Source: Candidatus Saccharimonadota bacterium (GTDB lineage: Bacteria > Patescibacteriota > Saccharimonadia > Saccharimonadales > Saccharimonadaceae). Taken from it: 64,000 nt of DNA. Positions 42,540-62,392 of the stretch are shown in pieces. A model generated the notes under the pieces. That model was not told the origin of the DNA and did not search any database. It worked only from the letters and a program-made list of their open reading frames with translations. Position 1 is the stretch's first letter. Each line of letters starts with the position of its first letter. Made by a program: the position numbers and the translations under genes. Where the stretch lies: NCBI GenBank assembly GCA_017460225.1, contig JAFUBM010000005.1, positions 12,284 through 76,283 on the forward strand, read 5' to 3'.

Positions 42540-42561
42540 ATATATATTATAACATATTGTG

Positions 42562-42770
42562 GTCATTTCTTGGCTGGCTATAACGGCGAAGGATTCTTTC
42601 TCGCTAGGGAAAATCCAGTCTGATTTTTCTCGACGTCCAGTCGAGCGGCTCGCAAAGCCGTTCGGGTAGCACCGGCCACGTTTTGCTCGCCTTCGTGTCC
42701 GTCTCGAAAAATCCGTGGATTTTCTTTAGTCGCTTCGAAAGAACCGTTCGCCTCGCCGGCAAGAAATGAC
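42562..42770. mobile_element. 209-bp MITE/REPIN-like element, copy 1
   Basis: 11-bp terminal IR GTCATTTCTTG/CAAGAAATGAC; long imperfect subterminal IR; second copy at 62184. Confidence 0.75.
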
Positions 42771-42778
42771 TGATATTT

Positions 42779-42834
42779 CTGGCGGGGAGAGACCCCCGCC
42801 AGCCAAAAACAGAAAGAACCCGTTAGGGTTCTTT
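42779..42834 (-). terminator. Two hairpins downstream of rpmH
   Basis: CTGGCGGGG/CCCCGCCAG (42779-42802) and AAAGAACCC/GGGTTCTTT (42813-42834). Confidence 0.65.
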
Positions 42835-42843
42835 CCACTGGAA

Positions 42844-42981
42844 TTAATATGTGAGGCGTTTGCGGCCTTTGAGGCGGCGGCGCTTCAAGACGAGGCGGCC
42901 GGCGTGGGTGGCGTTGCGCTTCATGAAACCATGCTCAGCTTTGCGTTGGCGCTTGTGGGGCTGATACGTACGTTTAGGCAT
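42844..42981 (-). CDS. rpmH: 50S ribosomal protein L34 (45 aa; absent from the ORF track)
   Basis: Manual translation [45 protein letters not shown]; canonical position divergent from dnaA. Confidence 0.95.
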
Positions 42982-43039
42982 AAAATAGAAATCCTATATA
43001 GTTTATTTAATTGCAATTATTTGGTCTATTATAGCAGAG

Positions 43040-43167
43040 TTTTCCACGAATGACAAGGAGTTTTCCACAACGAAACAGGTTAGCTGGCGAAAAAGTGGAA
43101 AAGTTGTTCCCTGTTAGAAAAATCTATATTAGAAAATAAAAAAATCTTCTTGCGAACTTGTGGAAAA
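43040..43167. promoter_or_regulatory. DnaA-box cluster upstream of dnaA
   Basis: TTTTCCACG 43040, TTTTCCACA 43061, AGTGGAAAA 43094, TGTGGAAAA 43159. Confidence 0.8.
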
Positions 43168-43221
43168 CTTTGGAGAGATAGGGTATAATGGAGGGAGTTA
43201 AGGAGGTCGAAAAAACAAACC

Positions 43222-44616
43222 ATGTTTGATGTGTTCCAGAATGTGTTGGCAGAAGTCCAGAGAGAAGTCTCGGATGCCTCCTTTAAGACGTGGTTTAAGG
43301 ACGTGGAGCTGACTAATCTAGACCGTAAAGCGAAGGTGGCGACGATTGGCGCGCCGAATGTGTTTGTGACTAAACAGCTAGAGTCGAAGTATCTAGAGAT
43401 GTTAATGGAGGCGTTTAGACATAACAAAATAGAGTTAACTAAAATAGATTTTACGGTGAAGTCGACCGGCAAGACTAAGGTACGGTCGCGAGAAATCAGG
43501 AATGAGGAAGGAATAACCCTAGGGGGAGCGGAGCGGATGAGCTCTGTGGGGGAGCTGGCCGGACGGATGCGCGGCATGAAGCCGACGGGTGGATTCAATA
43601 CGGGGCTAAACTCAAAGTATACCTTGGACAACTTTGTAGTGGGGAGAAATAACGACCTGGCGGCGGGCGTGGCACGACTAATCGTGAAGCAGCCCGGGGG
43701 AAAGTACAATCCGTTTTTCCTATACGGCGGGCCGGGGCTAGGTAAGACACACTTGGTACAGGCGATCGGAAACGCCATCCTGGAGCGAGACCCGAAGTGC
43801 CGCGTGTTGTACATCACGATGAATCATTTTTATTCGGAATTTATCAACTCAATCCGAGCAAACAAGGGCGAGGAGTTTGTGCGGAAATACCAGAAGCTGG
43901 ATGTGCTGATTATCGACGATTTCCAGATGATTATCGGGAAAGACCGGAGCCAGGAAGAGTTTTTCAATATTTTTAACGACCTACATCAGGCAAATAAGCA
44001 GATTATCGTAACGAGCGATCGGTTACCCGACCAAATCAAGACCTTAGACGCGAGGCTATCGAGCCGACTAACTTGGGCGGGAGCGTATGACTTGCAGTTC
44101 CCCGGCTTTGAGGATAGATGCGCTATCTTGAAAGCCAAGGCGGAGTTTATGGGGCAAGAGATCGAAGACGCAGCGATTGAGTTTATTGCGGAAAACGTCA
44201 AAACCAACATTCGCGACCTTGAGGGAGAATTCCAGAAGATTATGGTGACGAGCGAAATCCGCGGAATGAGCCCGCTGGAGCTAATCAACGAGGGGTATAT
44301 CTCCGGCTCGGTGGTGCAGCGACGAAGAAACGTCACCGCAAGACAGGTGGTGGAGAAGGTGGCAAAATACTACAACTTGACCGTGATAGAAATGACTGGA
44401 AAAAGCCGAGTGAGCAATATCAAAACCGCAAGGCAGGTGGCGATGTATCTACTATCGAAAGAGTTAGGGATGTCAACCACTAAGATTGCACCGGAAGTGG
44501 GAGTAAAAGACCATACGACCGTAATGAACGGCCTAAAACGCATCGAGGCGGAACAAAAAACGGATTTTATGCTCCGAGACCAAGTGGAGCAGATTCGCGA
44601 GGCGATTTATGGATAG
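43222..44616 (+). CDS. dnaA: Chromosomal replication initiator DnaA
   Basis: NPFFLYGGPGLGKTHL, DVLIIDD, QEEFFNIFN, NIRDLEG, KDHTTV. Confidence 0.98.
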   Translation: MFDVFQNVLAEVQREVSDASFKTWFKDVELTNLDRKAKVATIGAPNVFVTKQLESKYLEMLMEAFRHNKIELTKIDFTVKSTGKTKVRSREIRNEEGITLGGAERMSSVGELAGRMRGMKPTGGFNTGLNSKYTLDNFVVGRNNDLAAGVARLIVKQPGGKYNPFFLYGGPGLGKTHLVQAIGNAILERDPKCRVLYITMNHFYSEFINSIRANKGEEFVRKYQKLDVLIIDDFQMIIGKDRSQEEFFNIFNDLHQANKQIIVTSDRLPDQIKTLDARLSSRLTWAGAYDLQFPGFEDRCAILKAKAEFMGQEIEDAAIEFIAENVKTNIRDLEGEFQKIMVTSEIRGMSPLELINEGYISGSVVQRRRNVTARQVVEKVAKYYNLTVIEMTGKSRVSNIKTARQVAMYLLSKELGMSTTKIAPEVGVKDHTTVMNGLKRIEAEQKTDFMLRDQVEQIREAIYG

Positions 44617-44629
44617 CCGAAGTAAAAAC

Positions 44630-44857
44630 TGTGGATTACTTGGTGGAAAAATGAGTGATATTTGTGCGGGGTTACGGTGCGAAAAACTGTGCAAAGCTAG
44701 ATTAGCTATAAACCAAACCGAATTAGAATGTGTAGAATTGTCGCGGCTGGTGGAGTATGGAGCTGGGGTTGGTGGAAAAGTCTATCAGATGAGAAAGCAA
44801 TTAAAAACACGGAAATCATGTTTTCCACATAGGTTACTATTACTACTAAATAAATAA
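44630..44857. other. oriC segment: DnaA boxes, DnaA-trios and AT-rich unwinding region
   Basis: TGTGGATTA 44630, GGTGGAAAA 44642 and 44771, TTTTCCACA 44821, then TAGGT and TAC-TAT-TAC-TAC-TAA (44835-44849). Confidence 0.8.
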
Positions 44858-44867
44858 GGAGGAAGAA

Positions 44868-45974
44868 ATGGAGATTGAAGTAGATTCGGGGAAACTAGCT
44901 AAAGCGCTCAGTATAGTGAGTCGAGTAGCAGCAGGAAGCAAGGCGACTTTACCTATCTTAAACAATGTTTTGATCCGAGTGGATGCGGGAAAGGTAAGTC
45001 TAACGACCACTAACCTAGATATGGCGGTAGTAGATTATTTGCCAGTATCGAAGAGTAAAGACGGGGTAATTACCGTACCGGCGAGGCTACTAGCAGAGTT
45101 TGCAGCAAACTTACCGAAGGGGAATGTTGTAAAAATTACAACAGACGGAGTAAAGGTGAACGTGGAGACTAAGGGATATAAGTCGACACTAAACGGAGCG
45201 GTGGCGGATGACTTTCCGGAGCTACCGGGAATAGACGAGAAAAAGGCGGTGAGGTTTAAGATGGGGGTGGATGAGTTTAAGGTGGGGGTAAACCAGGTGA
45301 CGGTGGCGAGCTCAAACGATATGACACGGCCGGCGTTAACCGGAGTCTACTTTAATACGGACGGCGGGGCGCTATATATTGCGGCGACGGACGGATACCG
45401 GCTGAGCGAGCGGAAGTTTATAGAAAAAGTACAGGCGGAAGTAAAGGCGATTGTGCCGACTAGTTCCCTGTCGGAAGTGATGCGATCCCTAGGCGAAGAG
45501 ACGGAGGAGGTGGAGATTTTGTTTGATGAGACGCAGGTACGATTCCGGGCGGGAGAGATAGAAATCACCTCAAAGCTAATCGACGGGAGCTTCCCGGATT
45601 ATCGACAGTTGATACCGAAGGAAGTGGAAGCGGAGATTGTGGTCCCGAAAGACGAGTTAGTGCGAGTAACGAAGCTGGCGGCGCTGTTTGCGAGAGAAGT
45701 GGGTGGGTCGATTGTACTGGAGGCGAAGACGGCGACGGGGACGTTTGCCGTGGCGGCGGTAGCGAATGAATACGGAGAAAACTCATCGGAAATAGAGACG
45801 GAAGTGACGAAAGACGAGCGGATAACGCTAAACTCACGATTCTTGATCGACGCCCTGAACGCGCTAGATGAGGAAAAGGTGAAGCTGGGATTCTCGGGGA
45901 AGTTGAGCCCGATACTGGTAAAAAATGAGAAAAGCGACAAATATACACATATTATTATGCCGCTAAAATCGTGA
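44868..45974 (+). CDS. dnaN: DNA polymerase III beta clamp
   Basis: LPILNNV, TTNLD, RPALTGV, ATDGYRL, FPDYRQLIP, IIMPLK. Confidence 0.97.
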   Translation: MEIEVDSGKLAKALSIVSRVAAGSKATLPILNNVLIRVDAGKVSLTTTNLDMAVVDYLPVSKSKDGVITVPARLLAEFAANLPKGNVVKITTDGVKVNVETKGYKSTLNGAVADDFPELPGIDEKKAVRFKMGVDEFKVGVNQVTVASSNDMTRPALTGVYFNTDGGALYIAATDGYRLSERKFIEKVQAEVKAIVPTSSLSEVMRSLGEETEEVEILFDETQVRFRAGEIEITSKLIDGSFPDYRQLIPKEVEAEIVVPKDELVRVTKLAALFAREVGGSIVLEAKTATGTFAVAAVANEYGENSSEIETEVTKDERITLNSRFLIDALNALDEEKVKLGFSGKLSPILVKNEKSDKYTHIIMPLKS

Positions 45975-46993
45975 TGATAATTAAATCTGTAAAGTTGACG
46001 AATTTCCGGAGCCACGAGTGGTTTGATTTGGAATGTTGGAAAGCGACGACGATGATCTCGGGGGAGAACGGGAGCGGAAAGACGTCGATATTGGAGGCAA
46101 TCTACGAGACGATGCGGGGAAAGAGCTTCCGGGCGATAGACCGAGAGATGGTGCGGAGAGGGGCGGAGTTTTATCGAGTGGAGCTGGGGTATGTGGATGG
46201 AGAAAAAATCGTGGTGACTTATGATGCGGTGACAGATAAGAAGACGTTTCTGGCCGGCGATAAAAAGACGGCGCGGTTACCGAAGAAATATCGCTATCCG
46301 ATTGTGTTGTTTGAGCCGGACGATCTAAACTTGGTCTCGGCGAGCCCGACGCGGAAGCGCGAGTATTTTGATAGATACTTGGCGCAGCTCAACGAAGGGT
46401 ATAATAATTCCCTAGTAAAATACAACAAAGCACTAAAGCAGCGGAATGAGCTATTAAAAAACGAGCGAGTGGGGCGGAGTGAACTGTTTTCTTGGAATAT
46501 ACTACTAAGTAAGCTGGGAGTAGTGATAGCGCGCGAGCGAAAAAAGCAGACAGAGAAAATCAACCGGGAGCTGACCGAGGTGTATCGGAGTATCGCGGAG
46601 AATGAAGACGAGATAAGCCTAGAAGTAAAGTCTGACCTAGGGCGGATGGACGAGAGCGAGTATTTACGGGAACTAGAGGGGAGGTTTGAGCGAGATAGAA
46701 TCTTGGGGCATACGACGTTTGGGGTGCACCGAGATAATTACGAGTTTACCTTTAACGGGTCGGGGGCGGAGGGGTCGGCAAGCCGAGGAGAGGTAAGGTC
46801 GATGATTGTGGCGCTGAAGTTTATTGAAGCGGAGGAAATTTTCCGAACACTAAGAAAAAGACCGGTGGTGTTGCTAGACGATGTGTTCTCGGAGCTGGAT
46901 GAGACAAGGCAAAAGGCCTTGGTGAAGAACTTTAAGCAAAACCAAGTGATTATCACGAGCGTGAACGCGGTGGAGGATGTGGAGGTGAACTAG
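45971..46993 (+). CDS. recF: DNA replication/repair protein RecF
   Basis: LTNFRSH, GENGSGKTS, ASRGE, LLDDVFSELD. Confidence 0.93.
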   Translation: MMIIKSVKLTNFRSHEWFDLECWKATTMISGENGSGKTSILEAIYETMRGKSFRAIDREMVRRGAEFYRVELGYVDGEKIVVTYDAVTDKKTFLAGDKKTARLPKKYRYPIVLFEPDDLNLVSASPTRKREYFDRYLAQLNEGYNNSLVKYNKALKQRNELLKNERVGRSELFSWNILLSKLGVVIARERKKQTEKINRELTEVYRSIAENEDEISLEVKSDLGRMDESEYLRELEGRFERDRILGHTTFGVHRDNYEFTFNGSGAEGSASRGEVRSMIVALKFIEAEEIFRTLRKRPVVLLDDVFSELDETRQKALVKNFKQNQVIITSVNAVEDVEVN

Positions 46994-47412
46994 TTGCAGT
47001 TGTTATCGTAGATGAGGCGGTAGTTTTTGGGGTCGATTCCCTGCTCGGTAAGCCAAGAAAGAGCGGCGGAGCGGAGATTGGTGCGGATAGGTTCTTCGCA
47101 GGTGCGGATAGTAATAGAGAGGGTGACGGCAGTATCGGCGGCCTCAGGGGAGACGGCGAAAATACGGAAGCCATAGGCGCGACCAGGATTAGAATCGTAT
47201 GGTAGGAGAGAGAAGACTGGGTCGGAAGAGAGAAGAGAGTCGCGATAGGACATAAGATCGTCTTGGGACTGGGACTGGATGGCTTCATAGGAATCTGGGT
47301 CTGGGGTGGATTCTGAGTGACGGGTTAAAACGAGAATAATAACAATAAGAATAACAACGATAAGCCCAAAGGTGCCAAAGAGGAGATAAAGTTTTTTGTG
47401 GTTTTGGTTCAT
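46990..47412 (-). CDS. Single-pass membrane protein, hypothetical
   Basis: N-terminal TM; coupled to the upstream hydrolase gene. Confidence 0.7.
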   Translation of the reverse strand: MNQNHKKLYLLFGTFGLIVVILIVIILVLTRHSESTPDPDSYEAIQSQSQDDLMSYRDSLLSSDPVFSLLPYDSNPGRAYGFRIFAVSPEAADTAVTLSITIRTCEEPIRTNLRSAALSWLTEQGIDPKNYRLIYDNNCN

Positions 47413-48701
47413 TAAGCGCCTCCTAGGTAGCGATAAACGTGATAGCCGGGGTAGGTATAGAAGTAAGTGATTTCTCCGGTGACGCGGCGGTAGCCGGCTT
47501 CGGCGATTTTGGGCTGACCGTTGATTTCTACGTAAATATAAATGTGCTGGGGACTAGAATTGACGATAATGTCGCCAGGCTGGAGGGCGCTATAATTACC
47601 ATTTTCTGCTTCGGTAATGCGGCGATAAGATGAGCTGGAGGCCATGTGGGATTCTTGGACGGTGGGGCCGGTTTCTGGAAAACTAGTATCGAGACCGGAG
47701 TAGTGCATGACGGTAGCGACGAAGACGTCGCAGGAAGCGCCGCGACCTTCGGGAGTGCCCCGACCAAGAAAGGCTCCGACGCCGGTGGACTCGAGCGCGG
47801 CGGTGTAAGTAGGTTTGGCTTGAAAGGCGGCTTCGGTGTGCTCCATGGCGGCGGTGATATGGTCTTCTTCCCAGGCTAGGTCAATAGCGGTGTCGGCGAT
47901 GGAGTTGCCGGTGGTGCTGGTGCCACAATAAGAAGCGGAAGAGGAAGATGAGCTACTAGAGGCGGAACTAGACGGAGAGGAAGAGATTTCGGTGTCTGTG
48001 GGGGAGAGTGAAGAGAAGGAAGAATAGGCGCTTTCAGCAAAACTACGGCGACCGGAGGCGTTTTGATAGAGATTACCATTGGCGAGGGTGGCAACACCTG
48101 GGTCGAGAATGGAACCTTCACCATAGATAGCGCGTTCATAAACGACAAGAAAAAGTTCGGCGTAGGAAGAAGGAGAAGGATTGGAGACCCGGCCGAGATT
48201 GTTAGTATATTGGCTAAATTCACCAGGCTCGTTGATCATATAGGTAAGCTCGACTTGGAGGGCGGCATCGGACTGGGATTCATCACCCCAAGAGATACCA
48301 TGGGAGGCGAGTTCGTTCATAAGTGCGTCATTACGACCGCCGCAAGCTTGATAAATACCACTACAACCGGAGCTGTTGCGGGCGAAAGGATTGACGTTGC
48401 TTTCTGCCATGAGGTTACCGATGATACCGGCGATGGCGGCGGGGTTGTCGGAGACGCCAGAGATGCCGGCGTTGAGGAGAAAGTTCCAGGCTTTTTCGGC
48501 ATTAGAATTGCCGGTGAGGTCGGTGAGAATGATAGAGTCGCAACTACCAAACTTGGCAACCCAGTCTGGGTCGTAGAAATAGATGCCGTTGTAGCCGTAG
48601 GTTTTTTTGCGGGAGGAGGAGAGGGCTTGGACGGACGTGGTGCCGGCTACGACCAAAAAGAAGCTAAGAAAGATAAATAGGACGGGTCTAATAACCTTCA
48701 T
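47412..48701 (-). CDS. Secreted two-domain peptidoglycan hydrolase (phage-tail-lysozyme-like plus NlpC/P60-CHAP-like)
   Basis: Signal peptide; AIAGIIGNLMAES; Ser linker; ASCDVFVATV...LQPGDII...HIYIY. Confidence 0.75.
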   Translation of the reverse strand: MKVIRPVLFIFLSFFLVVAGTTSVQALSSSRKKTYGYNGIYFYDPDWVAKFGSCDSIILTDLTGNSNAEKAWNFLLNAGISGVSDNPAAIAGIIGNLMAESNVNPFARNSSGCSGIYQACGGRNDALMNELASHGISWGDESQSDAALQVELTYMINEPGEFSQYTNNLGRVSNPSPSSYAELFLVVYERAIYGEGSILDPGVATLANGNLYQNASGRRSFAESAYSSFSSLSPTDTEISSSPSSSASSSSSSSSASYCGTSTTGNSIADTAIDLAWEEDHITAAMEHTEAAFQAKPTYTAALESTGVGAFLGRGTPEGRGASCDVFVATVMHYSGLDTSFPETGPTVQESHMASSSSYRRITEAENGNYSALQPGDIIVNSSPQHIYIYVEINGQPKIAEAGYRRVTGEITYFYTYPGYHVYRYLGGA

Positions 48702-48728
48702 TATCTATATATTATATATATAATAAAC

Positions 48729-49082
48729 TTAATCGTCAATCGGAGGTTCGGAGAAGAGGGTGGAAGAAGTTGAGGCGGGTTTGGATTCAGCAGTGGAAGT
48801 AGAGTTAGATTCGGTGGCGCGGGCGGAAGAGTAGGAGGCGTAGTTGGATTTTAAAATACCGAGCATGAGAAAGGCGGCGAGGAAAGTGGCGGCGAGGACA
48901 AGGAGGCGCTTGGTCTCGAAGCTTAAATCCTTGAGACTAGAGAGATTGAAGGAGCTGGAAGAAAAACTAGAAGAAGCGGAGGGCTCAGAAAGAGGAGTGG
49001 TGCCGGCGGGGACGAAGGGGTCGTCGCGGTGGTGTAGCCAAAAGAGCTTTTCTTTGAGGCGCTCAAAATGCTCGTACATCAT
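48729..49082 (-). CDS. Single-pass membrane protein, hypothetical
   Basis: Central TM with Ser-rich flanks; TGtTATAAT-N8-ATG. Confidence 0.6.
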   Translation of the reverse strand: MMYEHFERLKEKLFWLHHRDDPFVPAGTTPLSEPSASSSFSSSSFNLSSLKDLSFETKRLLVLAATFLAAFLMLGILKSNYASYSSARATESNSTSTAESKPASTSSTLFSEPPIDD

Positions 49083-49122
49083 ATAGAGATATTATAACAG
49101 ATAGAGGGGGAAGATAAAAACT

Positions 49123-50949
49123 TTAGCGTTGTGTGGTTTGAGTGGGGTTGGTGGTGATAAGTTGTTCTTCTGTCTCGCTGGCGATGACTTGGATGTGAAC
49201 GTGGTTGCTACCAGCAAAGAAGAGACCCTGGCCGACCGGGAAGTTGGCGAGACGTTTCTTTTCTTCGTCGGTCAACTTGAAGACATCCGAGAGGACGTCG
49301 ACGGCGGAAGCGGATTGTTTTAAGAGGAGCTGCATGGAAGAGTTGGCAACGATAGCGCGACCCATTTTGGTCCCCATAAAATCTTCGACGTCTTGAGTGA
49401 TGGTAGAGAGGCCGAGGTAATACTTGCGGGCGCGCTTGGCAAGGGAGAAGAGGAAGTTGGCGGAATCTTCGTGTTGCATGAGCTGCCAAGCTTCATCAAC
49501 GATAAGTAGGCGACGCTTCTGCTCGGCGCGGACGACGTTCCAGATGTGGGACAAAACGATATACATGGCGACGGGGCGGAGCTCATCCTCAAGATCGCGG
49601 ATGTTGAAGACAACCATAGGGTTGTTGATGTCGACATTGGACTGCTGGGAGAAGATGCCAGCGAAAGTACCGGTGGTGTATTTACGCAGGCGGTTGGCTA
49701 GCGAGGGGCCGGTGCCTTCCATGTGGAGGAGCGTGTCGTAGAGGTTGATGATGGTGGGGGAAGTGGACTGATGGGTGAGGGGATCAGAAGTGATGCCGGC
49801 ACGGGCGTAGGTGTCGATCAAAGCTTGGTCGAGATCGGCTTCTTCTTCGGCGGTGAGGGCGGGAGTAACGGAGCCGTTGGGACCAGTAGCGGTGCCGCCG
49901 AGCATGAGGCGGAAGAGACCGTGGAGGGTAACGAGATTGGCGCGGAGAGCGTCGTTGGCGTCTTCCGCATCGACGACCTTGGGAAGGTCAAAGGGGTTAA
50001 TCCGGACATCGGAGTTAAGCGAGAGGCGGATGTAAGAGCCGCCGACGGCGTCACAGAGCTTCTGGTACTCGTTCTCTGGGTCGATGATGATAATCTCGGC
50101 GCCGACCATCATAGAACGTAAGGCTTCGAGCTTGACAGTAAAGGATTTACCGGCACCGGACTTGGCGAAGACGACCATGTTGGCATTCTCAAGCGAGAAG
50201 CGGTCGAAGATGACGAGGCCGTTGTTGTGCATATTGATGCCGTAGAGGATACCCTTTTCTTGGGTTAAATCGGCGGAGGTAAACGGGAAAGAGGTGGAGA
50301 TGGCGCCGGTGTTCATATTGCGGCGAATCTGGAGCTGGTCAGTACACTGGGGGAGGCAAGATTGCATACCTTGCTCCTGTTGAGAGGAAGCAACCTTGGA
50401 AAAGACCATCTGCTGGCCAAAGAGAGTCTCGATTTTTTGCTGGACAAAGCGGAGCTCGTCGAGAGAATCGGCCCAGAGAGTAACGTAGAGACCAAAGCGG
50501 AAAAACTTCTCGGCGCCGACCTGGAGCTGGTCGCGGAGCTCCTCGGCGTCGGTGATGGCGGCTTCTAGCTCAGGGTCGCGGACTTTGCCACGCTCGGCGT
50601 TGACGTTCATGGAAGCTTCTAGCTGAGTGACTTTCTTGCGGAGGTTTTTCATGACGACGCCGGTGTCGACGGGATAGATGTACATAGAGATATCGAGGAC
50701 TTCATCGATGTTGATGAGGGGGGAGAGCCAGCCAGTGTAGAGCGAGCGGGGATAGCCATAAATATAGAGAGTGCGGCCGTATTTGGTGCCGAGGCGGAAA
50801 TGGTCGGAATGAATCTCGATAGAGGAAGGAGAGATGAGGTCGCGGAGGGTGGTAATGCCCTGCTCGAAGGCGCGCTGGATGGCAAGATCTTCGTTGAGCT
50901 GGCTCTGGGCGGCGATTTCCGCGGCGGACAAGTTCTTTTTCTTAGGCAT
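49123..50949 (-). CDS. VirB4-like type IV secretion ATPase
   Basis: AKSGAGKS (Walker A), IIDPENEY, INPFDL, LLIVDEAW (Walker B), RARKY, ITQDVEDF. Confidence 0.9.
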   Translation of the reverse strand: MPKKKNLSAAEIAAQSQLNEDLAIQRAFEQGITTLRDLISPSSIEIHSDHFRLGTKYGRTLYIYGYPRSLYTGWLSPLINIDEVLDISMYIYPVDTGVVMKNLRKKVTQLEASMNVNAERGKVRDPELEAAITDAEELRDQLQVGAEKFFRFGLYVTLWADSLDELRFVQQKIETLFGQQMVFSKVASSQQEQGMQSCLPQCTDQLQIRRNMNTGAISTSFPFTSADLTQEKGILYGINMHNNGLVIFDRFSLENANMVVFAKSGAGKSFTVKLEALRSMMVGAEIIIIDPENEYQKLCDAVGGSYIRLSLNSDVRINPFDLPKVVDAEDANDALRANLVTLHGLFRLMLGGTATGPNGSVTPALTAEEEADLDQALIDTYARAGITSDPLTHQSTSPTIINLYDTLLHMEGTGPSLANRLRKYTTGTFAGIFSQQSNVDINNPMVVFNIRDLEDELRPVAMYIVLSHIWNVVRAEQKRRLLIVDEAWQLMQHEDSANFLFSLAKRARKYYLGLSTITQDVEDFMGTKMGRAIVANSSMQLLLKQSASAVDVLSDVFKLTDEEKKRLANFPVGQGLFFAGSNHVHIQVIASETEEQLITTNPTQTTQR

Positions 50950-51745: not shown

Positions 51746-51754
51746 GTGCTCTCC

Positions 51755-52588: not shown

Positions 52589-52633
52589 GGTTATATTATA
52601 GCATGTTGTTCGCTTGCGGTCATTAGCATTTTA

Positions 52634-55600: not shown

Positions 55601-55768
55601 TTCCTGGCAGGTGTTGACGGAGGTGGTTTCTGAGGTGGTTTGGGCAGAAGAAGCGGGGTCGTCGACGGCGGAGACAGGCGTGTTTAACAGAGAGACGGTA
55701 GAAAAAAGAGCCAAAAAACTGAGGCCCAAAGAAAGAATTATACGGCGGATTTTTGCTAACACACGCAT
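52634..55768 (-). CDS. Large VirB6/TrbL-like polytopic T4SS membrane protein
   Basis: GWLVCP, IWSIFRDITN, YGIKRALPK, RQALIYLL..VSPLAF; ~8 TMs then ~700-aa hydrophilic tail. Confidence 0.7.
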   Translation of the reverse strand: MRVLAKIRRIILSLGLSFLALFSTVSLLNTPVSAVDDPASSAQTTSETTSVNTCQEESGSLGWLVCPATGFLSKVTDGLYEIIEEYLVIKPITSDADSPFRQIWSIFRDITNIVFVIFFLVVIYSQLTGIGISNYGIKRALPKVVVAAIMINLSYILCALFVDFSNIIGSSVRDIFLSIETSVTPSGLLTASVTSKDINYVNLTTLLGGGTILGGLAIGLAGGFAAVFLALIPVLLGGVVAVLSAYVTLAVRQALIYLLVMVSPLAFVSMMLPNTEIWYKKWKSTLTTMLVFYPLFAALFGACSLVGWTIMASAESNLILVLGMGVKVVPLIFSWKLLQMSGTLPGQVNTLVRNVLKAPTVGLSNAALRESAYRRAKYMGVEARPTQPSRYLAQYLKKRVDRRAADTADYEAAAKLSSAAYTANYRNRRGYLTSRGLERQRLLRQNVRNQELITKTTNDFEEGVSATTPKTDPRYQEILDNDLAVMNAADRLVIETARGEMIARDNAASRHARFEAALTARTQSTQYNRAINAANLARYNTISSIMHDNGERIHYAGAYAANAEAVQDKIITSKFANYFASIPPTQELVNRLKDLNNYHHSNEYIDTILMGMRTLNQRGDTDLVKATLDDVLSGGQIRLGTHASQAIANFLMFDVKDNDPFLRRYGKYINLETARVFNEGQLDDKGNDKRRKNNILSFDEYVKGEYEEVNPETGAVEIKKSKRGMVKLMEGTSLDGVERTAYDNILGSLKKVYGDDTEGMAKKLNELNWATLPAFISAALKYPSGSEQIQSQASYLTGLKLKNGKYVKRWEDPDDPYYGFPPEFFEKQTDLYVAAQTPNQILNLRTDLFSPMVESFANERIAELIASGELPENYADGMSDQELKEFRESKAKEKFQGILNSKGKLEQIYKSRRSGAALGSKDSLRRMLDLDDDVKIAAYIKQKAEERRERQAEIDRELEHEGSDSGPLPIYDNAEYFRDAMHDLFDEAGDSANYPKRVSRTLRKFGLDYCAYLFDEFLKANPSATNDDLFVELMDILDNPDNYR

Positions 55769-55922
55769 TGACCTTATGATTATATCACAAAATGCTTAAA
55801 AAGTCAATGATAATAAGGGGTAATAGAGAGGGCGGAAGAGGAGGAGGTGCGGGGCTGGCGTCTCTTTACAAGTAAAAATAAGTTTGGTATGATAGGGTTA
55901 AGCTTAATAAGAAAGGAAGAAG

Positions 55923-56318
55923 ATGAAAGTTTCTGAAAAAGTAAAGACGTTCATTATGGCCGGAGCGTTGGCGCTAGCTGGAGTGGGCGCAGCGGCGGTC
56001 TCGACGGTAACGGTGGCGCAGACCCCGGTTTACGCGGATTGGAAGTCTGAGGTACAGGGCGGGGCGGATTCTACGGGCGGTAATGGCACTGGGCAGAGCC
56101 TGGATGATTATGTAAAAACCATCATCAATACGATTCTCTATATCGTGGGTATCTTGGCGGTAGTTATGGTGATCTTTGGTGGCGTGCAGTATACGACTTC
56201 GGCGGGCGACCAAGCAAAGGTGACCAAGGCAAAGAACACGATTCTTTACGGGTTGATTGGGTTAATCGTAGCGGTGCTGGCCTATGCGATTGTCCAGTTT
56301 GTCATCGACAAGCTTTGA
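55923..56318 (+). CDS. TrbC/VirB2-like pilin
   Basis: Signal peptide; LAVVMVIFGGVQYTTSAGDQAKVTKAKNTILYGLIG. Confidence 0.85.
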   Translation: MKVSEKVKTFIMAGALALAGVGAAAVSTVTVAQTPVYADWKSEVQGGADSTGGNGTGQSLDDYVKTIINTILYIVGILAVVMVIFGGVQYTTSAGDQAKVTKAKNTILYGLIGLIVAVLAYAIVQFVIDKL

Positions 56319-56332
56319 TATTAGCCAAGAGG

Positions 56333-56360
56333 GCTCCCCGGAAAACCGGGGAGCTTTTTT
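56333..56360 (+). terminator. Intrinsic terminator
   Basis: GCTCCCCGG-AAAA-CCGGGGAGC followed by T6. Confidence 0.85.
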
Positions 56361-56388
56361 CTGCGGAGAAGTATGTTATAATAGGGCT

Positions 56389-56805
56389 ATGAAAAAGAAA
56401 ATCTTGTTGTGTTTAGTAAGTTTGATGATAGGGGTGGTGAGCTTGACGCCGGCGCCGGTGATGGCGATGTGCGGGACGGGCCACGCGTTTTTTGGGCTGA
56501 AGAGCTGGTATCATTATCTGGATTGTAATGCGGACGGGACGATTGCGGAGTCGACGTTTGCGGGTGATAATTTGGTAGAGGCGGTCTGGAAGATTGTGGC
56601 GGTGGTGATCTCGGATTTGTTCTTTGTGGCGGGGATGCTAGCGGTGGTGATGATTATCGTGGCGGGGATTAAGTTTATCACGAGCGCGGGAGACCCGGCG
56701 GGCGTGGCGAAGGCAAAGAAGGGTCTGACGGCGGCGATTGTGGGGCTGGTGATTGCGCTGGCGGCCTGGGCGATAGTAAATACCGTGATGGCGCTGTGGA
56801 GCTAA
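56389..56805 (+). CDS. TrbC/VirB2-like pilin with Cys-containing N-terminal extension
   Basis: IIVAGIKFITSAGDPAGVAKAKKGL; Cys pair. Start moved to 56389. Confidence 0.82.
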   Translation: MKKKILLCLVSLMIGVVSLTPAPVMAMCGTGHAFFGLKSWYHYLDCNADGTIAESTFAGDNLVEAVWKIVAVVISDLFFVAGMLAVVMIIVAGIKFITSAGDPAGVAKAKKGLTAAIVGLVIALAAWAIVNTVMALWS

Positions 56806-56814
56806 GGAGGAAAG

Positions 56815-57084
56815 ATGGACCAAGTAAAGAACGTAATCAACAACAGCGGGATTCCGCAGACGGATCCGAGCGTGGTAGAGGCAAATATCATCAACCGGAT
56901 ATTTTGGGTAGTGGGGGTGCTGGCGGTGATAATGATTATCGTGGCGGGGGTACAGATGATTACAAGCGCGGGAGACTCCGGAGCGGTGACTAAGGCAAAG
57001 CGGACGCTGGTCTATTCTATTGTGGGGCTGATTGTGGCCGTGCTGGCGTATGCAATCGTAAACTTTATTATTGGGAAGTTTTAG
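56815..57084 (+). CDS. Short TrbC/VirB2-like pilin
   Basis: SD AAGGAGG; IIVAGVQMITSAGDSGAVTKAKRTL. Confidence 0.82.
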   Translation: MDQVKNVINNSGIPQTDPSVVEANIINRIFWVVGVLAVIMIIVAGVQMITSAGDSGAVTKAKRTLVYSIVGLIVAVLAYAIVNFIIGKF

Positions 57085-57088
57085 CATA

Positions 57089-57114
57089 AAAAATAGCCCC
57101 GCGGGGCTATTTTT
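57089..57114. terminator. Bidirectional terminator
   Basis: AAAAATAGCCCC-GC-GGGGCTATTTTT. Confidence 0.8.
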
Positions 57115-57119
57115 GTTGG

Positions 57120-57650
57120 CTATTGAATCGGGATGACCTTGGGAGCTTCGACTTTTTCTTTCTCGAAGGTAATCGTAAGGACGCCATCGCGGAGCTCGGC
57201 TTTGACGGAGTTTTCATCTTCGCGGACTTGGACTGGAAGGGCGATAGTCCGGGAGAACTCACCCCAATAACATTCTTGGATGTGCCAGCGAGTAGTCTGG
57301 TCATCTTCCCCGCCGGAGAGAACACCGGAGATGGTCAAGATAGAATCATGAATAGAGACGTTTAGGTCGCTCTTTTTGATGCCGGCGGTGCGGGCTTTGA
57401 TAACTAATTTGTCGGCGGTTTCATAGACATCTACGGCGAGCTGTCCAGGAAAATCATCGCCAGTTTCCCACCCATCATCCCCCTCGTCTGATGGTTCTGC
57501 ACTTTCTTCTTCCTCGGCGGGAGCGAGATCTTCTTCCCCCTCGGGGGCAAGAGGCTCGTCCGGCTCGAGCATAGTGGTAGCGTCGTCTTCTAGGAAGGCG
57601 GCAGCTAATTCATCTTCCATCAGCATGTCATCGTTGGTTTTACGAGCCAT
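57120..57650 (-). CDS. Small heat-shock protein (Hsp20) with acidic N-terminal extension
   Basis: LAVDVYET, ECYWGEFSRTIALP, AELRDGVLTI. Confidence 0.92.
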   Translation of the reverse strand: MARKTNDDMLMEDELAAAFLEDDATTMLEPDEPLAPEGEEDLAPAEEEESAEPSDEGDDGWETGDDFPGQLAVDVYETADKLVIKARTAGIKKSDLNVSIHDSILTISGVLSGGEDDQTTRWHIQECYWGEFSRTIALPVQVREDENSVKAELRDGVLTITFEKEKVEAPKVIPIQ

Positions 57651-57722
57651 ACTCGGTTTCCTCCACTGAGATTAATATAACCTTTATTATATGGGAAAGG
57701 TCTGGTAAAATCAATAGAGAAT

Positions 57723-58499
57723 ATGGTTTTTTCTAAAGAAAATGGTGTAAAAAATACAACGAAATGGGCGGTAAGTTCGGTTTTTGATTTGTTATCACCT
57801 CCGTTGTGCAGGGGATGTGGGGTGCGAGGGAGCTATTTGTGTGAATGTTGTAAAAAATACATTTTGGAACACTTACGCGTGCGACGGGATTTTGGGGAGG
57901 CTCCGGAGGCGAGGGAGGTGTTTTATCGAGTGAGCTATCTGGGGTATCGGGATGAGCTGTTGGGGGAGATGGTGGAGGAATATAAATACCGTTCGATAAG
58001 GGGCTTAGCTGGGGTGCTGGCGGAGATATTATGGGAGGGATATTTGCGGTCAGAGACGAGGAAGAGGAAAGTAATTTTGGTGCCGTTCCCGACAAGCCGG
58101 AAGCACATAAGAGAGCGAGGGATGGACCATACGCTGATTTTGGCGCGAGAGATAGCCAAGCGGGCAGGAGGGGGCATGGAGGTCTCGAGGATGCTGAGAC
58201 GGCGCAAAGATACGACACAGGTAGGGGCGAGCGAGGAGTTGAGGAAGAAGCAGGCCAAAGAGGCGACGGAAGTAGACGAAAGAGAAGTTAGGAGAGTGTT
58301 AGAGAAATATGGGCGGGCGCTAGAGAAGGGGAAGGCGAGGGTGGTAGTGTTTGACGACGTCTGGACGACGGGGGCGAGTATGATAGAGGCGGGTAAAAAA
58401 TTGCGGCGAGCGGGTGTGGAGAGACTGGAAGGGCTGACGGTGGTGCGAGGGCGACGTCAAAAAAGCCCTACGATATACGGAGGGCTGTTTGAGGCTTAA
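57723..58499 (+). CDS. ComF family protein (Zn finger plus phosphoribosyltransferase)
   Basis: CRGC...CECC, RERGMDH, VVFDDVWTTGASM. Confidence 0.85.
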   Translation: MVFSKENGVKNTTKWAVSSVFDLLSPPLCRGCGVRGSYLCECCKKYILEHLRVRRDFGEAPEAREVFYRVSYLGYRDELLGEMVEEYKYRSIRGLAGVLAEILWEGYLRSETRKRKVILVPFPTSRKHIRERGMDHTLILAREIAKRAGGGMEVSRMLRRRKDTTQVGASEELRKKQAKEATEVDEREVRRVLEKYGRALEKGKARVVVFDDVWTTGASMIEAGKKLRRAGVERLEGLTVVRGRRQKSPTIYGGLFEA

Positions 58500-58504
58500 G
58501 TAGG

Positions 58505-58870
58505 CTAGGCGACAACGCCGAGAACAAACTCGACGATGGCAACGGAGAGCAGGGCGACGACGAGACCAATCAGAGCGTAGAGAATGGTGTTCTTGGCGTC
58601 GGTAACTTTTTTGGCATCGCCACCAGAGACAGCGTATTTGAACCCGCCGAAGATGAGCATAATAACGGAGAGCGCGCCGAGGATGTAGAGGAAAGTATGG
58701 GTGATTTCAGTGATGACACCGTTGTTACCGGTAAGGGTGGTGGGCATATCTTCGGTGCGGGCGGCTTCGATACCGTCACGGACAGAGAGAGCCATAACTT
58801 TGCCGGCGAAAAGAGTCGTCATTGCGGCGGCGCCGGTGAAAATTTGGGATAGTTTTGCTAGATGTTTCAT
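58505..58870 (-). CDS. TrbC/VirB2-like pilin
   Basis: IMLIFGGFKYAVSGGDAKKVTDAKNTILYALIG. Start moved to 58870. Confidence 0.85.
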   Translation of the reverse strand: MKHLAKLSQIFTGAAAMTTLFAGKVMALSVRDGIEAARTEDMPTTLTGNNGVITEITHTFLYILGALSVIMLIFGGFKYAVSGGDAKKVTDAKNTILYALIGLVVALLSVAIVEFVLGVVA

Positions 58871-58973
58871 TAATTTTCTCGCAGTTAATGAGTTATTTGG
58901 TCTATTATAGCACAGATTGAGGAAAAAGACAATAGGTGCGAAGAATGAGAGAATATGATAAAATAAGACGGAC

Positions 58974-59066
58974 GGAGGGTTACCCAAGTGGCTGAAGGGG
59001 ACGGTTTGCTAAATCGTTAGTCTGGGGAAACCTGGAGCGGGAGTTCGAATCTCCCACCCTCCGCCA
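58974..59066 (+). tRNA. tRNA-Ser (GCT)
   Basis: GGAGGGT...ACGGT-TTGCTAA-ATCGT, long variable arm, GTTCGAATC, ACCCTCC-GCCA. Confidence 0.92.
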
Positions 59067-59090
59067 TTTTTTGTGTGATATAATGAAGTC

Positions 59091-59570
59091 ATGAGTAGTA
59101 AAACTTTGAAACAGAAAGAAATAGTCAATTGGGAAGCGGAAGAGTATGTGCAGACGGAGAAAAATACGGGATGGTATGTGGGGTTGGGGGTGGTGGTGCT
59201 GGGGCTGGTGGCGTTGTCGATTTGGCTGGAATGGTGGACGTTTACGGCACTGGTAGTGCTGTCGGCGGTGGCGATTGTGATTTATTCGGTGTGGCCGCCA
59301 CGGAAGTTGCATTATTCCCTGTCGGACAAGGGGCTGTCGGAGGGAAATCGGCTGTATGATTATGACGAGTTTAAGAGCTTTGGGGTGGTAGTTGAGGGAA
59401 AGAAGCCGTCGATTGTGTTGACGCCGAGGAAGCGGTTTTCTCCGCGCGTAACGGTGTATTTTCCAAAGACGAAGGGGGAGGAGATTGTGGATGCGTTTGG
59501 CGCGAGACTGCCGATGGAAGACGCGAAGTTTGATTTATTGGACAGGATTGTGAAGTTTTTGCGATTTTAG
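59091..59570 (+). CDS. Small two-TM membrane protein with soluble C-terminal domain
   Basis: WEAEEY...WY, hairpin TMs; leaderless promoter. Confidence 0.75.
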   Translation: MSSKTLKQKEIVNWEAEEYVQTEKNTGWYVGLGVVVLGLVALSIWLEWWTFTALVVLSAVAIVIYSVWPPRKLHYSLSDKGLSEGNRLYDYDEFKSFGVVVEGKKPSIVLTPRKRFSPRVTVYFPKTKGEEIVDAFGARLPMEDAKFDLLDRIVKFLRF

Positions 59571-59639
59571 GCTTGAGCGTTTTGGAAAAATGTGGTAAGC
59601 TGGGTATAAGTAGAGTAATTTATCAACACTAAAAAAAGG

Positions 59640-60194
59640 GTGGTTATGAATAACGACGAATTGCAAAAAGCAATTGATGATATCACGAAAGAGACCGCGC
59701 CGGCTCCGGCTGAGCCTGTGGCGGCAGAGACAGAAGCGCTAGCGAACGAAATCGCAGGAGCGACCGCACCAACGACAGGCGAGGGCGTAGCACTCGCGCC
59801 GGTAGCGGAAGCGGCTCCGGCGGCAGAAGCGCCAGCAGTAGACATTCCGGCGGCGCCAGCACCAGCGGTACCAGAGACTCCAGCGATGCCTCCGGTAGCG
59901 GAAGCGCCAGCAGCTGAGCCTGCTCCGGCAGAACCGGTAGCTCCGGCGCCAGCACCAGTAGTGGCGACTGAGCCAGAGGCGGCGGCGACAGGTATGGACG
60001 ACATCAAGAAAGAAGCCCTGAAAGAGCTCTATCCGCTCCTAGATAAGACTGATATGACAGCGGAAGAAAAGTATGACATTTGTATGGAGATGCAGAGCGA
60101 GCCGGATGCGATCCGGAACGCACTGGGGTACGCGAAGCAGTTTACGGACATGGGTAAGAAGGTAGACGCGTTGCTCAAAATCTACAGGATGTAA
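59640..60194 (+). CDS. Ala/Pro/Glu-rich hypothetical protein with helical C-terminal domain
   Basis: Low-complexity central region; bounded by a terminator. Confidence 0.75.
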   Translation: MVMNNDELQKAIDDITKETAPAPAEPVAAETEALANEIAGATAPTTGEGVALAPVAEAAPAAEAPAVDIPAAPAPAVPETPAMPPVAEAPAAEPAPAEPVAPAPAPVVATEPEAAATGMDDIKKEALKELYPLLDKTDMTAEEKYDICMEMQSEPDAIRNALGYAKQFTDMGKKVDALLKIYRM

Positions 60195-60200
60195 ACCTAT

Positions 60201-60231
60201 AAAAAATAGCCCCCGTAGGGGGCTATTTTTT
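60201..60231. terminator. Bidirectional terminator
   Basis: AAAAAATAGCCCCC-GTA-GGGGGCTATTTTTT. Confidence 0.85.
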
Positions 60232-61843
60232 AGTACATGCCGGACATATCGGGAGTGGCTGGTTTGGGTTCGGGGATTTCGCAGATGAGGCAGCCCATAG
60301 TGATAGCCGTGGCGGCGATCGAGACGGCGTTTTGGACAGCTTCACGTGTAACGCGGGCAGGGTCGATGACGCCAGATTTTTTCATATCGACGAGACCTTT
60401 TTCGGGGGTCATGACGTTGATACCGTAGCCTGGTTTGGCTTTTTCAACTTCCGCAAGGAGAGCGGGGGCATTGAGGCCGGCGTTTTCTAAGATATGAATG
60501 AGCGGGCGTTTGAGGGCATTTTTGACAATTTTAGTACCGTTGTCATCGCCTTTGAGAGAATTGGCGAGATTGACGAGGGTAACACCGCCACCGGGGACGA
60601 TACCTTCAGAGAGAGCGGCTTTGGTAGCGGCGACGGCGTCGTCGACACGGAACTTCTTTTCGTCGATCTCGGTCTCGGTAGCGCCGCCGACTTTGATGAT
60701 GGCAACTTTGCCAGAGAGGGCAGCGGCACGTTTTTCGAGCTGTTCTCTTTCGTAATCAGAAGTGGCAAGAGCGGCTTGGTTTTTGATGAGCTCGATGCGG
60801 TCAGAGACGGATTGTTTGCTACCGGCACCTTTGATGATGGTGGATTCGTCTTTGGTGGCGATAACCTTACCGGCACTACCTAAGACTTCCATACCACATT
60901 CTTCGAGCTTGAGACCCTTATCGGCAGAGACGAGGGTAGCGTCGGTCAAGATAGCGATGTCTTCCATAATTTCTTTGCGGCGGTCACCAAAGGCGGGAGC
61001 TTTGAGGACGAGAGAATTAAAGACACCTTTGAGCTTGTTCAAAACAAGAAGCGAAAGAGCTTCGCCTTCGACTTCTTCGGCGATGATAACGAGGTCTTTC
61101 TTCCCTGCCTGAGCGCATTGTTCGAGGAGCGGAAGCAGGTCGGATGCGGCGGAAATCTTTTTATCGGTAACAAGGATGAGAGGCTTGTCAAAGACGGCTT
61201 CTTGGCGGTTAACGTCGGTGACGAAGAACGGAGAGGAATAACCTTTGTCGTAAGAAAAGCCTTCGGTAATTTCCTGCTCCATCTCTAGGCCTTGGCCAGC
61301 CTCAACGGTAACGACACCGTCTTTACCGATTTTTTCGATAACGTTAGCAATGAGTTCGCCAATTTCGGCGTCGCCAGCGGAAATGGTGGCGACTTCGGCG
61401 ACTTTTTTGGAATTGCCCTCGATTTTTTCTGTCAATCCATCGATGCCTTTAATGATTTCTGCTCCAGCGCGTTCAATTCCCTTGCGGAGCTCCATAGGAT
61501 TGACGCCAGCGGCGATGAGCTTGTTGGCTTCGTTGAGGATTTCGTAGGTGAGGACGGTGACGGTAGTAGTACCATCGCCAGCGACTTTGTTGAGCTTTTG
61601 GGCGGCAGATTTAATGAGTTTGGCGCCAACGGCTTCGCCGAGGTTGGTTTCGTCGTTCTTGAGCTCGACGGCTTCGGCGACGGTCACGCCATCGTGTGTG
61701 ATGACAGGCGCGCCGTATTCTTTTTCGATAATGACGTTTTTACCTTTGGGACCAAAGGTAACTTTGACGGCGTCGTAAAGTTGTTTAGCGCCGCTTAAAA
61801 CTTTTTCACGAGCTTCGGCTTCGTAATAAATCTTTTTTGCCAT
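60230..61843 (-). CDS. groL: Chaperonin GroEL
   Basis: TFGPKG, ITHDGVTVA, AGDGTTT, KAPAFGDRRK, GIVPGGG. Confidence 0.98.
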   Translation of the reverse strand: MAKKIYYEAEAREKVLSGAKQLYDAVKVTFGPKGKNVIIEKEYGAPVITHDGVTVAEAVELKNDETNLGEAVGAKLIKSAAQKLNKVAGDGTTTVTVLTYEILNEANKLIAAGVNPMELRKGIERAGAEIIKGIDGLTEKIEGNSKKVAEVATISAGDAEIGELIANVIEKIGKDGVVTVEAGQGLEMEQEITEGFSYDKGYSSPFFVTDVNRQEAVFDKPLILVTDKKISAASDLLPLLEQCAQAGKKDLVIIAEEVEGEALSLLVLNKLKGVFNSLVLKAPAFGDRRKEIMEDIAILTDATLVSADKGLKLEECGMEVLGSAGKVIATKDESTIIKGAGSKQSVSDRIELIKNQAALATSDYEREQLEKRAAALSGKVAIIKVGGATETEIDEKKFRVDDAVAATKAALSEGIVPGGGVTLVNLANSLKGDDNGTKIVKNALKRPLIHILENAGLNAPALLAEVEKAKPGYGINVMTPEKGLVDMKKSGVIDPARVTREAVQNAVSIAATAITMGCLICEIPEPKPATPDMSGMY

Positions 61844-61865
61844 ATATTATATATACCTTTCTGGA

Positions 61866-62114
61866 TTAGAGCGTTGCGAGGACGTCTTCTTCTTTTACTA
61901 AAATATATTCGGTGGCGTCGAGCTTGACAGGAGTAGTGGAGTATTCTTTGTAGATGATTTTGTCGCCTTTTTTGACGTCTTTGACGTCTTTGCCGACGGA
62001 TTCGACTACGGCGTAGGCGGGTTTTTCTTTTTCTGGAAGAAGCAGGCCGGAAGCAGTGATGTTTTTAGTCTCTTCTTTTTTCGCAACAATGTAATCTTTG
62101 AGCGGTTTTAGCAT
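61866..62114 (-). CDS. groS: Co-chaperonin GroES (short, 82 aa)
   Basis: LKPLKD, TASGLLLP, VKKGD, EEDVLA. Confidence 0.95.
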   Translation of the reverse strand: MLKPLKDYIVAKKEETKNITASGLLLPEKEKPAYAVVESVGKDVKDVKKGDKIIYKEYSTTPVKLDATEYILVKEEDVLATL

Positions 62115-62152
62115 AATATCTCCTTTTCTGGCTATTTATTATAGCCGTTTGA

Positions 62153-62179
62153 TTAGCACTGTCAAGTGTAGAGTGCTAA
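62153..62179. promoter_or_regulatory. CIRCE element (HrcA operator) upstream of groES
   Basis: TTAGCACTG-N9-GAGTGCTAA, one mismatch to the consensus TTAGCACTC-N9-GAGTGCTAA. Confidence 0.9.
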
Positions 62180-62183
62180 AGCG

Positions 62184-62392
62184 GTCATTTCTTGGCTGGC
62201 TATAACGGCGAAGGATTCTTTCTCGCTAGGGAAAATCCAGTCTGATTTTTCTCGACGTCCAGTCGAGCGGCTCGCAAAGCGATTCGGGATACACCGGCCA
62301 TCGTTTGCTCGCCTTCGTGTCCGTCTCGAAAAATCCGTGGATTTTCTTTAGTCGCTTCGAAAGAACCATTCGCCTCGCCGGCAAGAAATGAC
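62184..62392. mobile_element. 209-bp MITE/REPIN-like element, copy 2
   Basis: Same orientation and length as copy 1; 9 mismatches by manual alignment. Confidence 0.75.

Follow-up and report, generated by a model that had tools for sequence, protein, structure and literature searches.

What are the two long palindromic repeats beside rnpA and groES in the 64,000-nt stretch of Saccharibacterial DNA analysed here (the window; positions 12,284 to 76,283 of contig JAFUBM010000005.1, assembly GCA_017460225.1)? We find them to belong to a hairpin-forming family that has a conserved core, sits in part in frame within essential genes, and changes over time in such a way that its base pairing, not its sequence, is retained. 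The reading we favour, with a probability of about 0.7, is that of selfish, non-autonomous coding palindromes of ruminant-gut Candidatus Saccharibacteria, comparable to the Rickettsia palindromic elements (RPEs), whose core spreads to new sites and whose hairpin is kept at the DNA level.

Both window repeats are direct copies in the same orientation and are 95.7% identical over 210 bp (Table 1), which is one base longer than the 209 bp of the original prediction. Its count of nine mismatches stood: eight fall into three central blocks and one lies near the other end. Sequence reading and folding likewise bore out the perfect 11-bp terminal inverted repeat (TIR; GTCATTTCTTG / CAAGAAATGAC) in both copies and a single long hairpin, which forms from either strand (-93.9 kcal/mol, z -6.3, and -92.7 kcal/mol, z -7.2) with a stability reached by 0 of 200 shuffles. 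What did not hold was the implied status of a two-copy repeat. The genome (G000), that of a tiny-genome gut Saccharibacterium assembled to 694,526 bp in 20 contigs and 98% complete, contains ten copies of a 148-bp core, a number on which BLAST and a covariance model (R1) agree, and hairpin z-scores in the family range from -6 to -9.

Homology breaks off near the same pair of positions, give or take a few bases, in the majority of pairwise comparisons, among them those with all four in-gene copies. These positions lie 13 nt inward from either end of the 174-nt model span, and the common unit is therefore the 148-bp core. Beyond it, each copy pairs another 9-30 bp whose sequence differs by site. 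Exceptions to this are two small groups that share arms, namely the rnpA and groES copies on the one hand and the copies C3a, C3b and C17a on the other, with the outer 31-nt arms being common only to the two window copies among the ten. Of the near-invariant core motifs, GGGAAAATCC-AGTC lies to one side and GTGGATTTTCTTTA to the opposite side, and the apical loop reads TCGGG-NNN-CACCGGCC. The apical stem-loop of copy 1 harbours the three central blocks that separate the window copies and that are variable but mutually compensating, and the same apex is found in shorter elements of the relatives G065 and G146.

Four of the ten copies reside inside long open reading frames (ORFs), those of Der, Obg, ValRS and DnaX, without breaking them, and all four have one orientation and one frame. 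Only one of the element's six reading frames is stop-free, and it is this frame that the in-gene copies always use. Over the model span they are exactly 174 nt long (174 + 33 in one relative); two intergenic copies measure 173 nt and are frameshifted. The ten strong in-gene copies of relatives agree in orientation and phase as well, each of them running antisense to the model within a long ORF, and a peptide search of public proteins adds three cases: LeuRS from a further Saccharibacterium, an Exo_endo_phos protein and an M1 peptidase. The predicted peptide of ~52-70 residues (consensus ...SFEATKENPRIFRDGHEGEQNVAGATRTALRAARLDVEKNQTGFSLAKK...) is hydrophilic, with 25-31% charged and 15-19% hydrophobic residues. 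The six remaining copies are intergenic, and all five with orientable neighbours point the same way as these, namely rpmH-rnpA, groES, tuf and two minus-strand ORF pairs. An element that sits in frame within genes in four of ten copies here and in all ten strong in-gene copies of relatives, and otherwise between co-oriented genes, is not promoter-targeting, as had been proposed from the two window copies.

Long, perfect-looking hairpins in essential genes could alternatively be intervening sequences, removed after transcription (for example by hairpin cleavage and religation) or after translation, such that the host proteins would be insert-free. Insertions into rRNA genes are known in organisms of this radiation. 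However, the single frame free of stops is used by all 14 in-gene copies, whose indels have lengths divisible by three; an excised element would need neither. Moreover, no ribozyme or intron family of Rfam matched the element, and the insert, a 52-aa peptide without intein-like residues, is far too short for an intein. We consider such excision highly improbable.

What, then, is being preserved? Across 30 distinct copies, 96.9% of cells are paired, both-sided changes are seen in 31 of 43 pairs, and double-change cells outnumber one-sided ones by 177 to 8; in slid controls, with partners shifted by one to three columns, pairing amounts to 43-60%. Among the pairs that vary, intermediates of the G-U kind are as common as those of the A-C kind (11 vs 10), and thus neither RNA strand is favoured. 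Nor do the in-gene copies vary in excess at third codon positions, entropy at positions 1 to 3 being 0.58, 0.73 and 0.73. Compensatory pairing without bias for a strand or for the third position places the constraint, or the correcting process, on the double-stranded palindrome: its target is the hairpin as DNA, neither the encoded peptide nor a single RNA strand. A design in which wobble positions pair with wobble positions was considered as well and ruled out, the codon phases of paired bases being evenly mixed.

These data bear on two further explanations. Were the element a module that serves at the level of the protein, recombination would have spread a useful peptide, either as a flexible linker or for interactions, and the palindrome would be incidental. 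The hydrophilic peptide, its invariable placement in linkers, and the occupation of the same DnaX and Der sites across species would suit such a module, which we nevertheless regard as very improbable: variation is not concentrated at third codon positions, it is base pairing that stays conserved, six of the ten copies are intergenic, and in other species the same Der linker is filled by unrelated hairpin families. Alternatively, the very strong covariation could stem from RNA folding in a functional structured RNA, either a cis-regulatory mRNA hairpin or a family of small RNA genes, as the original prediction had allowed. In line with this, three G-U pairs are invariant on one strand, and the copies with readable context are all co-oriented with local transcription. 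Yet the strand with these G-U pairs, which is the orientation fitted by the model, is antisense to every host ORF, and G-U intermediates are no more frequent than A-C ones. Scanning the window with Rfam 15 returned only three tRNAs at the gathering threshold, and nothing on the element at E up to 10. The host genes are unrelated, with no common regulatory logic evident, and most species of the genus are devoid of the element. A structured RNA is hence decidedly unlikely.

The origin of the outer stem can be traced at der. The N-side arm of this copy encodes RCLNSL, which aligns with DELISHI-type helices, in the part of insert-free Der (IEDLLDELISHIP type) that forms the C-terminal half of its native alpha-5 helix, and the C-side arm is the reverse complement of the N-side arm with one indel. 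Consequently, the der stem consists of host sequence and an inverted copy thereof. Quasi-palindrome template-switch mutagenesis (the Ripley model) is a known mechanism of arm-to-arm correction. Operating here, it would explain the correction of the arms, the excess of double changes with few one-sided intermediates, the outward growth of the stem into host flank, and the lack of strand bias. It is, however, a mutational mechanism and not an element family, and leaves the arrival of the core at new sites unexplained.

Together, this suggests the following life cycle. A conserved 148-bp core, itself an imperfect palindrome, caps a longer stem that differs by site. Moved by some presumed agent, the element would spread to new sites within a lineage and survive where it does no harm: in intergenic DNA and especially in the linkers that join the domains of essential proteins, where it would be translated in its sole stop-free frame. 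The hairpin would be maintained as DNA, its arms being corrected against each other, with intramolecular template switching of the quasi-palindrome type as the likely route; the der stem may have grown through inverted copying of host flank, and cores may be homogenised between copies by gene conversion. A more far-reaching proposal, which we put forward only tentatively, is that of a distinct mobile hairpin without a transposase of its own, whose structured core enters or replaces the tip of a stem at permissive sites; the stem would then grow, and be kept perfect, by template switching that copies host flank in inverted orientation. In the course of time, such a process would have filled the linkers of essential proteins throughout the genus with several unrelated hairpin families. 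If true, 'selfish DNA inside proteins', a lifestyle known from Rickettsia, would have arisen independently a second time, and its insertion chemistry would differ.

Several observations weigh against the RPE-like reading. Arms copied from the host do not account for every site: in the LeuRS genes of G000, G019 and the close relative P0004, the host flanks are near-identical, yet each gene has an arm pair of its own. Arms can also travel along with the core, since those of the rnpA copy recur in the groES copy. No copy departs from three G-T pairs, which lie on the strand antisense to host genes, and the co-orientation of all five orientable intergenic copies is not required of a purely DNA-level parasite. 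Neither a mobilising enzyme, nor a target duplication, nor presence/absence polymorphism at the strain level (five rnpA-site contigs) was found. Finally, translation of the insert is predicted from its frame and length.

Copies of the element do not evolve in isolation. Two variants of the central blocks, CCGTT...ACGTT and CGATT...ATCGT, are distributed independently of the arms, one being present in the rnpA copy and C3b, the other in the groES copy and C3a. The element occupies the rnpA site in all five strain-level contigs (97-98% identical to the window) that reach it, and in a strain of 97.4% identity (L174) a groES-type central block is found at this site. Such mosaic blocks, together with the L174 variant, indicate gene conversion between copies. 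In LeuRS of G000, the equivalent linker holds an insert whose arms resemble the ones of the two window elements but whose 77-nt interior is different, and this interior reappears at C3:49607 between other arms.

Recombination between the window copies had been anticipated by the original prediction. In support of it we find, besides L174, a contig of 1344 bp (L139; ENA ERZ27256839 k141_1006613) that joins rpmH and an rnpA-type element to CIRCE-groES. The junction could reflect a 19.6-kb circle or a tandem duplication of the segment with dnaA and the type IV secretion system (T4SS), arisen through inter-copy recombination. It could equally be an assembly chimera, which supposes a strain whose two copies are identical.

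Which enzyme might mobilise the element? We searched for six Pfam families and a reverse transcriptase (RT) family, with a Y1 control that was detected in six reference genomes. Y1 (PF01797), TnpB-type (PF07282), DDE_Tnp_1 (PF01609) and IS110 (PF01548) proteins are absent from the 98% complete genome, controls being positive. Its recombination and RT set consists of one rve-type insertion sequence (IS), one Xer-like recombinase and one RT, none of them linked to the element, and the ends of the sole rve IS (C13:6587) are unrelated to it. The notion of a non-autonomous, multi-copy palindromic element without a nearby transposase is thereby supported. In contrast, its likeness to REPINs (doublets of repetitive extragenic palindromes, REPs) was not upheld: the genome has no Y1 transposase, and the architecture is that of one 150-210-bp hairpin and no REP doublet. 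The element is not a REPIN.

In a classical MITE (a miniature transposable element with inverted repeats), an IS deletion derivative would be moved in trans by a transposase that recognises its TIRs, and the in-frame copies would be survivors of random insertion. The perfect 11-bp TIR of the 210-bp copies is what one would expect of a MITE, as are multiple copies with a patchy distribution between species and lineage-specific bursts; moreover, given a single open frame, selection alone could sort in-gene copies into this frame. We still deem a MITE unlikely, on three grounds. There is no direct target duplication: flanks read T/TG at copy 1 and C/GG at copy 2, in agreement with the earlier statement that no consistent duplication exists, and none emerges at the rnpA site in comparison with the empty site of the closest relative (L101). 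The transposase families named above are missing and the one rve IS has different ends. And the common unit is internal, with the outermost arms differing at nearly every site, which is the reverse of a TIR-defined MITE.

Two side observations concern the genome's enzymes as such. The only DDE (rve) transposase gene (378 aa; L057, G000:C13:5087-8383) lies on a contig of lower GC content (49.5%). The 383-aa RT (RVT_1; L056, G000:C4:1-3183) adjoins a pair of 66-nt repeats (1-66 and 561-626) that are 97% identical, with one difference, at an adenine. The pair resembles a diversity-generating retroelement's template and variable repeats, with the contig beginning inside the variable one.

Empty sites are available for comparison both at rnpA and at der. 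The rpmH-rnpA spacer is 46-52 bp long in eight contigs of other species with identical RpmH, as compared to 304 bp here. In an alignment with L101, whose nucleotide identity to the window is 76.5%, a single insertion of 249 bp (42557-42805) stands out, made up of the element and a 35-nt GC-rich hairpin; the flank of the empty L101 site has no match to the arms that the rnpA and groES copies share. As a side observation, this additional hairpin (CTGGCGGGG...CCCCGCCAG) is situated between the rpmH terminator and the element and is missing from the closest relative, and GC hairpins resembling it adjoin three other intergenic copies. Der is without insert in all 24 genomes from other families of the order. 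Its two halves are 6-50 nt apart in 23 of these and ~96 nt apart in G051, where the GD1 match is shorter; the inter-domain segment comprises 24-25 residues in the eight other-family genomes with the linker read out.

The distribution of the family is patchy. By BLAST, two out of 36 further genus members have the core, as does no genome from the 24 other families of the order, and R1 found the family in eight of 150 other genus genomes. An exact two-motif pattern, applied to 185,579 species genomes, matched only metagenome-assembled genomes of Candidatus Saccharibacteria from goat and sheep intestine, and it had no match in viral contigs. In a tree of the 30 distinct copies, G019 and G000 each form a lineage-specific cluster, the G000 one being young, next to an older group with the three DnaX copies, and insertions at the same DnaX and Der sites are kept across species. 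The copies at C10:31093, C3:39482, C3:89179 and C17:1883 are young ones.

The linkers in question host more than this one family. Within the genus, Obg and Der linker lengths are hypervariable, and Der linkers are mostly long DNA hairpins (z of about -4 or lower in 19 of 29 genomes, down to -9.8). These represent several unrelated, multi-copy families, with 20 matches for one (G019) and four for another (G088); an apical motif common to all of them was sought and not found, which sets them apart as separate families. G000 itself has at least three further families of hairpin repeats (z -3.0 to -7.6), where a family was counted only if repeat copies and z-scores both bore it out. They include a second in-frame hairpin in ValRS and a relative of the family that fills Der linkers in G088 and G067. 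Genome-wide, a sliding RNAfold scan yielded 39 candidate hairpins versus ~11.5 expected from shuffles; none of the five candidates within the window was significant upon re-folding (z +1.2 to -1.8), and a whole-genome minus-strand BLAST for palindromes proved too insensitive. Separately, in about a dozen genomes of the genus the Obg match is split near residue 97-101 within an open frame of 465-543 aa, which suggests another in-frame insert, within the N-terminal Obg fold of those relatives.

The predicted placement of the window copies held. Copy 1 separates rpmH from rnpA, with the TGnTATAAT -10 of rnpA ten bases past its end, and the first base of copy 2 is 3 nt past the CIRCE operator of groES, the copy lying 64 nt upstream of a plus-strand surface-protein-like gene. 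The stop-free frame of copy 1 is on the minus strand, co-oriented with rpmH-rnpA, and an ATG within the element's terminal GGTCAT extends the rnpA ORF by nine codons (42540-42566). The resulting 123-aa form of RnpA is not on record as a called product, the 114-aa form is. Gene callers can thus be misled at rnpA by an ATG that the element supplies. Elsewhere in the window, two direct copies of a ~65-nt sequence (TAGTGCCGGCGACTTC...GGGCACG; 36458-36697), ~140 nt apart within one ORF, are probably an internal protein repeat.

Table 1. Features of the window, and copies of the element and other hairpins beyond it
Feature	Position or site	Strand	Remarks
Copy 1, 210-bp element (31-nt arms + 148-bp core)	42561..42770	-	between rpmH and rnpA; R1 score 197.7 bits; 100% query match
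148-bp core of copy 1	42595..42742	-	unit common to all 10 genomic copies
Apical stem-loop, copy 1	42652..42686	.	near-invariant TCGGG-NNN-CACCGGCC motif
Extra GC-rich hairpin, 35 nt	42771..42805	.	beside copy 1; within 249-bp insertion vs closest relative, outside repeat
Copy 2, 210-bp element	62183..62392	-	co-oriented with groES; identical in independent assembly (L137)
148-bp core of copy 2	62217..62364	-	
rpmH (L34)	42844..42981	-	Pfam Ribosomal_L34; upstream neighbour of copy 1
rnpA	42195..42539	-	ATG at 42539
CIRCE operator of groES	62153..62179	.	direct reading of sequence
groES	61866..62114	-	Pfam Cpn10
L139 junction	42561-43188 joined to 61467-62392		window coordinates
Der/EngA copy	between GTPase domains GD1 and GD2		Pfam limits
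Obg copy	between GTPase domain and C-terminal OCT domain		Pfam limits
ValRS copy	between catalytic and anticodon-binding domains		Pfam limits
DnaX copy	after ATPase lid		Pfam limits
DnaX	relatives G019, G088		in-gene copy
LeuRS, ArgRS, PriA, LepA, ValRS (second site)	all relative G019		in-gene copies
Der	relative G065		in-gene copy
TatD	relative G074		in-gene copy
One protein without Pfam match	relative		in-gene copy
Further G000 hairpin repeats	C4:6470-6620, C4:3050-3200; C8:26050-26210, C4:31920-32090, C7:9130-9300, C10:50725-50905; C3:49560-49730		

How does the element compare to known systems? Its closest counterparts are the RPEs (RPE-1 to RPE-10; Ogata et al. 2000/2002), as summarised in a MITE review (PMC10969869). 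Both are ~150-bp palindromes of a reduced genome, in tens of copies in the case of RPE, and neither has an associated transposase. In both, nearly half of the copies are in frame in unrelated housekeeping genes, adding a conserved peptide at sites compatible with the fold. However, the element described here belongs to an unrelated phylum, the Saccharibacteria of the Candidate Phyla Radiation (CPR), and is an analogue and not a member of the RPEs; we claim no sequence relationship. Unlike in RPEs, only the internal core is common to the copies, the outer stem being site-specific and made of host codons at der, copies appear to undergo gene conversion, and the same linkers (Der, Obg, LeuRS, DnaX) are repeatedly occupied by different hairpin families.

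With the Correia/NEMIS, ERIC, RUP and BOX MITEs, the element has in common that it is small, non-autonomous, hairpin-forming, multi-copy and often co-transcribed with its neighbours. Those MITEs have TIRs, direct target duplications and usually a parent IS, whereas here there is neither a duplication nor a parent IS, and the conserved part is internal. REPs and REPINs are likewise palindromic repeats whose hairpin is kept by compensatory change. REPINs, though, are doublets of 20-40-nt REPs, extragenic and accompanied by a Y1 (RAYT) gene, while our element is a single hairpin, often intragenic. Finally, the coding palindromes of Nematomorpha mitochondria (PMC6649704) resemble it in being long inverted repeats in protein genes with both arms translated, as is predicted here; they are organellar and perfect, however, and do not form a dispersed family with a shared core.

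In-frame palindromic elements have so far been treated as close to a Rickettsia peculiarity, and the same lifestyle outside Rickettsia was only speculated upon in the MITE review (PMC10969869). Our literature search found no description of such elements for Saccharibacteria or the CPR. The same lifestyle is now seen in an unrelated, ultra-small CPR genome, with a host range of at least a dozen mostly essential protein families. Where a housekeeping protein of the CPR has a long insert, this need hence not be a functional domain, and repeats of this kind cause breaks and false joins in metagenome assemblies. The stems, which are site-specific and in at least one case host-derived, point to a mechanism of insertion or maintenance that lends itself to experimental testing.

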